DNA of 895 nucleotides, from assembly GCF_003334405.1 (NCBI RefSeq), contig NZ_QOWM01000051.1, one strand, 5' to 3'. The notes beneath the pieces were generated by a model. It was not told the origin of the DNA. It worked only from the letters and a program-made list of their open reading frames with translations, and ran no database searches. The position numbers and the translations under genes are program-made. Of the stretch, positions 1-895 are shown piece after piece; positions within the stretch are counted from its first letter, which is position 1; each line of letters opens with the position of its first letter. This DNA is from Escherichia coli. GTDB taxonomy: Bacteria; Pseudomonadota; Gammaproteobacteria; Enterobacterales; Enterobacteriaceae.

Positions 1-895
1 TGCGGTCCGTCTTCTCCGTCAGCCTGCCGTATTCATCGTGGCGGTAGACATAGTGCGCATCCTCCGCGATGCGGTTATCCGGCCACACTGTGAGTGTACT
101 GTCCGGGTGCAGCTCCGGGTCCGGCAGCCGGTTGCCCGCCGGGTCCGTGGCATACGGGATGCGGATGTCCAGGTCTGGTGCGAGGGTGCGCACACTCTCC
201 AGCCTGCCCGTGGCGCTGTAGCCGTATTCCCGCGTCTGTCGCGGGCCGCTGATGCGCACCAGGTCGCCGTTGTCACTCCACCCGTAGTCACGGTCATATA
301 CCAGGCTGTTCAGGTGCTGGCTCTGTAACTGGCCTGCGGGGGTGTATGTGCTGGTCAGTTCGTATGCGGCATTACTGCCTGCCATGCTGCCGAAGCTGCG
401 CACCGTCTCACGGTGCAGCCTGTCCCGCGTATACTCGACCAGCGGCGTCCCGCCCAGCTTCATTCCCGCCAGGTAACCGCTGCCATACGTCAGCCACTCC
501 ACCGGCGGCAGGCTGTCCGGCGTGACGCGGTTTGCCAGCCCCTGCTCGTTGTATGCGTGTTTCGTCTCATGCTGCCACAGCAGTTCCCCCGTCTCCGGGT
601 TCTCCACCGTCTGGCATTCGCCGGTCAGGCGGCCTTTATCGTCATAGCCATAGTGGACGGCAACACGGTGGCCTTCGCTCAGGTGGCTGATGTCTGTCAG
701 CCAGCCGTGGCCATCATACTGCCACTGCTCTGCCGGTTCGCCGTTCACCGTGCGGTGAGTGATACGGTCCGATTCATCGTAGTACCAGAGGATGACAAGT
801 CCCTCATCCTCACTCTGTGTGAGTTTTCCGGTCAGGTCATAATGATAACGTTGCGTCCGCCCGTCAAAGCCGCCCTGCTGTACCAGCCGGTCCAG
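1..895 (-). CDS. rhs: Internal fragment, partial at both ends, of an Rhs-family YD-repeat core protein (polymorphic toxin, T6SS-associated or contact-dependent class). Complete codons occupy 2..895; position 1 is the first base of the next codon.
   Basis: Hand translation of the reverse complement starting at position 895 gives 298 codons with no stop: [298 protein letters not shown]. It contains repeated YD-repeat motifs (Y-x-Y-D-x-x-G-R/K-L-T) at roughly 20-25 residue spacing and is rich in Tyr (21), Asp (25), Gly and Trp (7), as expected for an Rhs/YD shell. From memory it closely matches the conserved E. coli-type Rhs core (rhsA/B/C/D family). The paralog cannot be assigned because the cores are near-identical and the distinguishing C-terminal tip is not in the window. 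No database search was run. Confidence 0.92.

Follow-up and report, generated by a model that had tools for sequence, protein, structure and literature searches.

An internal fragment of Escherichia coli rhsD as a strain-dependent repeat shared with rhsE

Is an 895-nt stretch of Escherichia coli DNA (referred to here as the window, by which we mean the whole of the stretch analysed) present more than once per genome, and if so, does it constitute a substrate for recombination and a hazard for assembly? A preliminary description, made from the sequence alone, had proposed all of this on the grounds that the window is a fragment of an Rhs core.

Identity of the window and its relatives

The window is the reverse complement of nt 1993-2887 of rhsD (b0497) of E. 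coli K-12 MG1655, to which it is 100% identical over 895 nt, and it corresponds to positions 525,253-526,147 of the MG1655 chromosome. The minus strand contains a frame of 298 aa, rich in YD motifs and without a stop from end to end, that encodes residues 665-962 of the 1426-aa RhsD protein (base 1 of the window is the first base of the following codon). The NCBIfam model RHS_core (NF041261) matched the 298-aa translation with E = 3.4e-195, over profile positions 669-965 out of 1261; at 651 bits the match lies below the whole-protein cut-off of 2000 solely because the query is a 298-aa fragment. The same translation scored 22.8 bits with the YD_repeat model TIGR01643 (cut-off 15.8) and gave five weak matches to Pfam RHS_repeat. 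Moreover, it aligned with the YD-repeat shell of the Rhs effectors of type VI secretion systems (Tse5, 8cp6; Tse15, 8uxt; and the Rhs proteins 7q97 and 8h8a), a distant similarity for which the best match, and the closest relative of solved structure, was Tse5 (8cp6_B, E = 2.6e-23). The window is therefore an internal piece of rhsD presented on the antisense strand, and the RHS_core match together with the identity to K-12 rhsD bear out its description as an Rhs core fragment. Judged from their sequence, the 298 encoded residues form part of the shell of YD repeats in a polymorphic toxin.

Little else was found in the window, which has a G+C content of 62.8%. Its internal repeats are limited to two trivial ones of 14-15 nt, and a scan of the window against Rfam returned no family (a single match with E = 0.21, which at 19.6 bits fell short of the gathering score of 47). 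The remaining reading frames hold short ORFs only. On the plus strand, the frame spanning window 2-895 has a single stop in 298 codons and includes a 96-aa ORF at 38-328. We considered this ORF as a candidate gene and rejected it as an antisense artefact of the kind typical of G+C-rich coding DNA, since it carries no signs of a gene.

The gene itself has the anatomy of an Rhs element, consisting of a G+C-rich core, the motif PxxxxDPxGL, an A+T-rich tip and a small downstream gene. In particular, beyond the window the K-12 rhsD locus has a core of 63.3% G+C and a tip of 36.5%, the motif that ends the core reads PLQQIDPMGL at aa 1249, and the gene is followed on its 3' side by ybbC and by orphan core and tip fragments. 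It sits between ybbP and ybbC, and no vgrG is adjacent. (Note that one of the downstream fragments, ylbH, at 9950-10231 of the extracted piece L001, is 82.9% identical over 280 nt to the rhsE core at its 3' end, L003 5210-5489; it is a separate, older core remnant that lies outside the portion of the core represented in the window.) Three subfamilies of Rhs elements have been distinguished, rhsABCF, rhsDE and rhsGH (PMC2935791). The window is the RhsD element of K-12, described as a member of the RhsD-E subfamily by Hill and co-workers, with no difference from that gene. The original paper on this subfamily is reportedly that of Sadosky et al. 1991.

To count relatives of the window, we compared it by megablast with 5,426 complete E. 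coli genomes. It matched 20,470 places in 3,871 of the genomes (1-9 places per genome, median 5), and in 1,302 records the best place was at least 99% identical. K-12 has five such places, rhsA to rhsE (Table 1). As a family, then, the sequence is multi-copy, as had been claimed. The further claim that the copies are near-identical held for rhsE, which is close to the window, but not for rhsA, rhsB and rhsC, from which rhsD diverges by ~23%, in line with the split between subfamilies. Indeed, not one 31-mer is common to the window and rhsA, rhsB or rhsC of K-12. Several near-identical copies are a property of the other subfamily, in which rhsA and rhsB are 100% identical over the segment equivalent to the window and 98.9% identical over the core, and not of rhsD.

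RecA-dependent exchange needs uninterrupted identity of a few tens of bp. We entertained the idea that rhsA, rhsB and rhsC might act as partners of the window in recombination or misassembly and rejected it, given an identity of ~77%, an indel of 21 nt and the lack of a common 31-mer; with respect to these requirements of length and identity, the three genes are not plausible partners for homologous recombination. Nor can they mislead the mapping of reads, for want of any 31-mer in common with the window.

A stricter count was made with 271-nt queries at an E-value limit of 1e-120, which corresponds to matches of at least ~96.5% identity. (The full 895-nt window was not counted in this way, as its E-values underflow to zero.) One query lay in the part of the window that is typical of rhsD, hereafter D-type, and the other in a part shared with rhsE; the outcomes are given in Table 1. 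Among the matches listed, at least 6 of 30 genomes with an exact match to the window also have a full-length copy of the E-type.

Table 1. Coordinates of the features of the window, of its relatives and of the rhsE locus
Feature	Location	Strand	Details
Internal rhsD coding fragment, assigned to the YD-repeat shell part of the Rhs core	window 2-895	minus	open frame, RHS_core match, K-12 identity
End of 848-bp perfect rhsD/rhsE block (K-12)	window 1-275		block: rhsD nt 2613-3460
Central divergent patch, diagnostic of rhsD or rhsE	window 276-752		47 differences from full-length rhsE
No rhsE counterpart in K-12	window 691-895		K-12 rhsE pseudogene starts at the equivalent of window 690
Start of 1,676-bp perfect block with full-length rhsE, e.g. 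M217	window 753-895		block: rhsD nt 460-2135
Patch, M217 rhsD vs rhsE	rhsD nt 249-459		15 differences
Patch, M217 rhsD vs rhsE	rhsD nt 2136-2612		47 differences
Patch, M217 rhsD vs rhsE	rhsD nt 3461-3774		33 differences
Strict count, D-type patch	window 430-700		1,427 genomes, 1,633 places; median 1, maximum 3 per genome
Strict count, shared block	window 1-271		2,173 genomes, 3,646 places; median 2, maximum 4 per genome
rhsE (K-12)	window 1-690 only		94.8% to window, 36 differences; 5'-truncated pseudogene
rhsA, rhsB (K-12)	window, full length		77.4% to window, one 21-nt indel
rhsC (K-12)	window, full length		76.6% to window, one 21-nt indel
Orphan fragment near ybfO (K-12)			80.5% to window over 174 nt
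rhsE locus, K-12	L003 3891-5939
rhsE locus, E. coli B	L019 9140-13133
rhsE locus, full length	L006, L008, L021

Patchwork identity of rhsD and rhsE

The first 275 bases of the window belong to the 848-bp block over which rhsD and rhsE of K-12 are identical. In MG1655 the two copies of the block lie at 525,873-526,720 and 1,528,327-1,529,174, as direct repeats 1,002,454 bp apart. The central patch that follows differs from full-length rhsE in 24 codons synonymously and in 13 codons non-synonymously. Compared with the truncated rhsE of K-12, the patch has 36 differences, which are clustered and all fall within window 276-690. The identity of rhsE to the window is 94.7-94.8%.

Strain M217 carries an rhsD identical to that of K-12 together with a full-length rhsE, and the mosaic can therefore be read within one complete genome. 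The 3,774-nt cores of the two genes have 95 differences (97.5% identity), every one of which falls within three patches (Table 1) that are 7-10% divergent and are separated by perfect blocks of 248, 1,676 and 848 bp; the window straddles the middle patch. The longest run free of differences, at 1,676 bp, compares with a mean of 200 bp and a maximum of 561 bp in 20,000 permutations. Of note, third codon positions account for 63 of the 95 differences, and the identical blocks have 0 synonymous differences. Protein-level purifying selection cannot account for blocks that lack even synonymous changes. Strain Ec-050 shows the same mosaic as M217. The mosaic pattern, as a feature of the sequences, points to recombination.

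At least three states of the rhsE locus can be distinguished: full length with an intact vgrG, the deletion of K-12 and the deletion of E. coli B. In non-K-12 strains the order is yncH-vgrG-rhsE (full length)-ydcD. The rhsE of K-12 is a deletion derivative from which vgrG and rhsE nt 1-2197 have been removed, and its junction was found in 499 genomes. The deletion in E. coli B is an independent one and joins a 339-nt fragment of vgrG to the core at nt 574. With respect to linkage to type VI secretion, full-length rhsE lies directly downstream of vgrG in non-K-12 strains (M217, Ec-050), whereas rhsD of K-12 has no vgrG. (Two further arrangements were seen. In strain S1 the locus is reduced to a 435-nt remnant adjoining nhoA. 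In EC416, a 1,190-nt query for the K-12-type junction matches in two pieces over 2,133 bp at NZ_AP027404.1 3124320-3126452, which suggests an insertion of ~0.9 kb, possibly an IS element by the look of the matches.)

The extent of identity between rhsD and rhsE differs between lineages. In E. coli B (strain C3029), rhsD equals rhsE over nt 574-2900 (2,327 bp), a segment that includes the whole of the window, and both copies have the same six differences from the K-12 window. Read from the sequences, these six common variants are a signature of concerted evolution. In strain A27, which was isolated from a tapir, rhsD is that of K-12 with an exact match to the window, and the gene at the rhsE locus is D-type over nt 1-3629, apart from two 1-nt deletions and one substitution, and has an E-type 3' end. 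This second copy matches the window at 894 of 895 positions, with D-type identity over ~3.6 kb; the A27 and B assemblies are single records of the long-read era, for which polishing with multi-mapped reads can artificially homogenise paralogs. (The A27 rhsE locus, at L021 19025-23246 in the order yncH-vgrG-...-ydcD, is annotated automatically as 'rhsD, frameshifted'. The frameshifts are single-base deletions and may be sequencing errors.)

Other alleles, when painted at the 95 diagnostic sites, are block-wise mixtures of D- and E-states. An rhs core of strain NRZ14408 (L013, NZ_CP158426.1) has 20-40 differences per 100 nt from rhsD between nt 1 and ~1600, where it is as divergent as rhsA, rhsB and rhsC, and is D/E-like beyond ~1600, with 0-20 differences per 100 nt; on this profile it may represent a chimera of two subfamilies or belong to a third one.

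Recombination between the loci and other explanations

These observations are very probably accounted for by a reading in which the rhsD core is a dispersed direct repeat with rhsE as its only effective partner, recurrent homologous exchange has homogenised lineage-specific tracts of the two genes, and the same tracts give rise to both crossovers and assembly ambiguity. The G+C-rich core of rhsD would be paired with rhsE ~1.0 Mb away, and repeated homologous recombination of the RecA type, or gene conversion, would have produced the identical blocks; we infer gene conversion as the cause of the mosaic and of the differences between lineages. The extent of the conversion tracts would vary by lineage, with K-12 and M217 keeping the central patch and tracts of 2,327 bp in E. 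coli B and ~3.6 kb in A27. The identical blocks would in turn allow crossovers between the loci, resulting in duplication or excision of a circle, and would cause short-read ambiguity and contig breaks.

In each case a second copy in the same genome shares long uninterrupted identity: 848 bp in K-12, two blocks of 1,676 and 848 bp in M217, a tract of 2,327 bp in E. coli B and one of ~3.6 kb in A27. Consistent with a role in exchange, a cross between an E. coli Hfr strain and Salmonella yielded a donor circle of ~957 kb that apparently arose from recombination between rhsD and rhsE, and other dispersed repeats of E. coli served as crossover points in Hfr hybrids (PMC9551528). The long perfect identity to rhsE and this reported event support the view of the window as a substrate for recombination between paralogs. 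The mention of inversions as an outcome did not hold up for K-12, where the five rhs genes all share one strand; because of this, crossovers between rhs genes in K-12 are expected to lead to duplications, deletions or circles and not to inversions.

Might the window nevertheless be effectively single-copy, with an unambiguous placement and no meaningful problem for recombination or assembly, so that the warning falls away? The closest paralog in K-12 has 36 differences over 690 aligned bases and no counterpart of window 691-895, rhsA, rhsB and rhsC have no 31-mer in common with the window, 300-nt reads derived from it find no exact second match, and the median for the D-type patch is 1 place per genome. 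However, window 1-275 lies in an 848-bp perfect repeat, ambiguity affects 16.9% of 150-nt reads, actual assemblies have contig breaks at rhsD, and a crossover between rhsD and rhsE has been reported. Moreover, the whole window segment is present twice in A27 and E. coli B, and near-identical copies of the patch occupy 1,633 places in 1,427 genomes, with up to 3 per genome. The single-copy reading is true for the whole window in K-12; it is true neither for the first 275 bases nor for A27 and B, and as a general account we consider it very unlikely. The uniqueness of the window depends on the strain.

An account without conversion between the loci would hold the blocks to be remnants of a recent duplication, and the patches to be later imports from alleles of other strains. 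It fits the occurrence of the D- and E-states at diagnostic sites in other alleles and in the rhsA/B/C outgroup, which shows exchange of patches among alleles of the population, and it fits the mosaic nature of D/E-type cores from different strains. The account is nonetheless unlikely, if somewhat less so than the single-copy reading, in view of the six lineage-specific substitutions that rhsD and rhsE of E. coli B share within their identical 2,327-bp block, the D-type core with an E-type 3' end at the rhsE locus of A27, and an extent of identity that differs in every lineage examined. The shared variants in B and the D-type core in A27 both require that sequence moved between rhsD and rhsE after the lineages had split. 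(Note that duplication followed by import of patches would still be recombination of cores, though not conversion between loci.) Far less probable than either is that assembly or polishing created the long identical blocks of the public records by collapsing or homogenising paralogs. Rhs regions are known to misassemble, the A27 gene is annotated as frameshifted with its two 1-nt deletions, and spurious Rhs 'plasmid' contigs occur in public collections; yet the 848-bp block is present in the finished MG1655 reference and occupies 2 places in many K-12 derivatives that were sequenced independently (DH1, DH10B and C600 among them), M217 and Ec-050 show an identical mosaic, and the crossover between rhsD and rhsE, which was recovered experimentally, requires real homology.

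Homologous exchange between rhsD and rhsE remains the preferred reading, and it has relatives among known repeats. Recombination between rhsA and rhsB is the original 'rearrangement hot spot' (Lin, Capage and Hill 1984, as recounted in PMC3045373 and PMC2935791), and there, too, dispersed direct repeats of an Rhs core act as substrates for unequal homologous crossover. The case of the window differs in that it belongs to the other subfamily and has rhsE as its partner, which in K-12 is a 5'-truncated pseudogene ~1.0 Mb away, and in that the identity of rhsD and rhsE is patchy, at 97.5% over the core and 94.7% over the window. Among dispersed repeats of E. coli, tufA and tufB offer a comparison for concerted evolution, of which lineage-specific variants in both paralogs are the classic signature; such variants are seen in rhsD and rhsE of E. 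coli B. Unlike rrn operons, IS elements or tufA/tufB, the Rhs core is incompletely homogenised and retains persistent divergent islands, and the product of the repeat is part of a polymorphic toxin with C-terminal tips that vary from copy to copy.

It has been inferred in the literature that Rhs cores at different loci seldom recombine. The data from B and A27, with a handful of genomes sampled, suggest that rhsD and rhsE are an exception to the conclusion of Jackson et al.

Consequences for mapping, annotation and the Rhs family

The hazard is real, and the warning is valid but ordinary and already documented: the multi-copy rearrangement hot spots of Rhs, the rhsD/rhsE subfamily, the breaks of assemblies at rhs loci and the crossover between rhsD and rhsE were all established before. 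In 454 assemblies of K-12 derivatives, common contig breaks fell at rhsD and the four remaining rhs loci, which were listed with rrn operons and IS elements as causes of such breaks, and one false polymorphism (SNP) was traced to an rhs misassembly (PMC3045373). The expectation that short-read assemblies collapse or mis-join such regions accords with these reports.

What we add is a precise map of which segments of the window are identical between the two genes and which are diagnostic, and of how this depends on lineage, which should be of use for mapping and annotation, in particular for read mapping, variant calling and the assignment of paralogs in the rhsD/rhsE region. Among reads derived from the window, an exact second location in K-12 was found for 22% of 100-nt, 16.9% of 150-nt, 4% of 250-nt and 0% of 300-nt reads. 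In K-12, short reads from window 1-275 could stem from rhsD or rhsE alike, and the same applies to 753-895 in many other strains. Window 276-752 separates rhsD from rhsE in K-12-like genomes and is duplicated in genomes like those of E. coli B and A27. The proposal that the window may not be uniquely placeable is thus right for E. coli B and A27, which have two copies, and wrong for the whole window in genomes of the K-12 or M217 type. The latter genomes allow unique placement because the window extends across the whole diagnostic patch and has 36-47 differences from rhsE; in B- and A27-like genomes it cannot be placed without its flanks because the whole segment is present twice.

Automated annotation may name the gene at the rhsE locus 'rhsD' because the name tracks the sequence of the core and not the locus, and paralog labels need to be checked against flanking genes. 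The rhsE-locus gene of A27, annotated as rhsD, gives substance to the advice that paralog assignments be treated with caution.

Plasmid records call for the same care. The 19,343-bp linear record NZ_CP069916.1 (L015, positions 1-19343), labelled 'Klebsiella oxytoca plasmid unnamed5', carries the E. coli chromosomal order ybbA-ybbP-rhsD-ybbC...allS-allA-allR-gcl-hyi-glxR and is likely to be contamination or an unplaced contig, and the records CP048292.1 (L016) and NZ_OY757120.1 (L017) are 'plasmids' of ~7 kb with fragmented Rhs ORFs and no replicon typing. We considered a plasmid-borne origin of the window and rejected it, as the 'plasmid' matches are chromosomal fragments or mislabelled records. 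That small 'plasmid' records turn out to be Rhs-containing fragments of chromosomes reinforces the call for caution with assemblies.

For the biology of the family, these findings provide more detail on concerted evolution in a well-studied group of genes and open no new question. It is possible, although we would stop a little short of calling it probable, that conversion between rhsD and rhsE is recurrent and ongoing, with lineage-specific tracts, and that the patch at window 276-752 is then a persistent island of divergence. If so, the patch would persist either as conversion tracts stop there or as selection keeps the two shells different.
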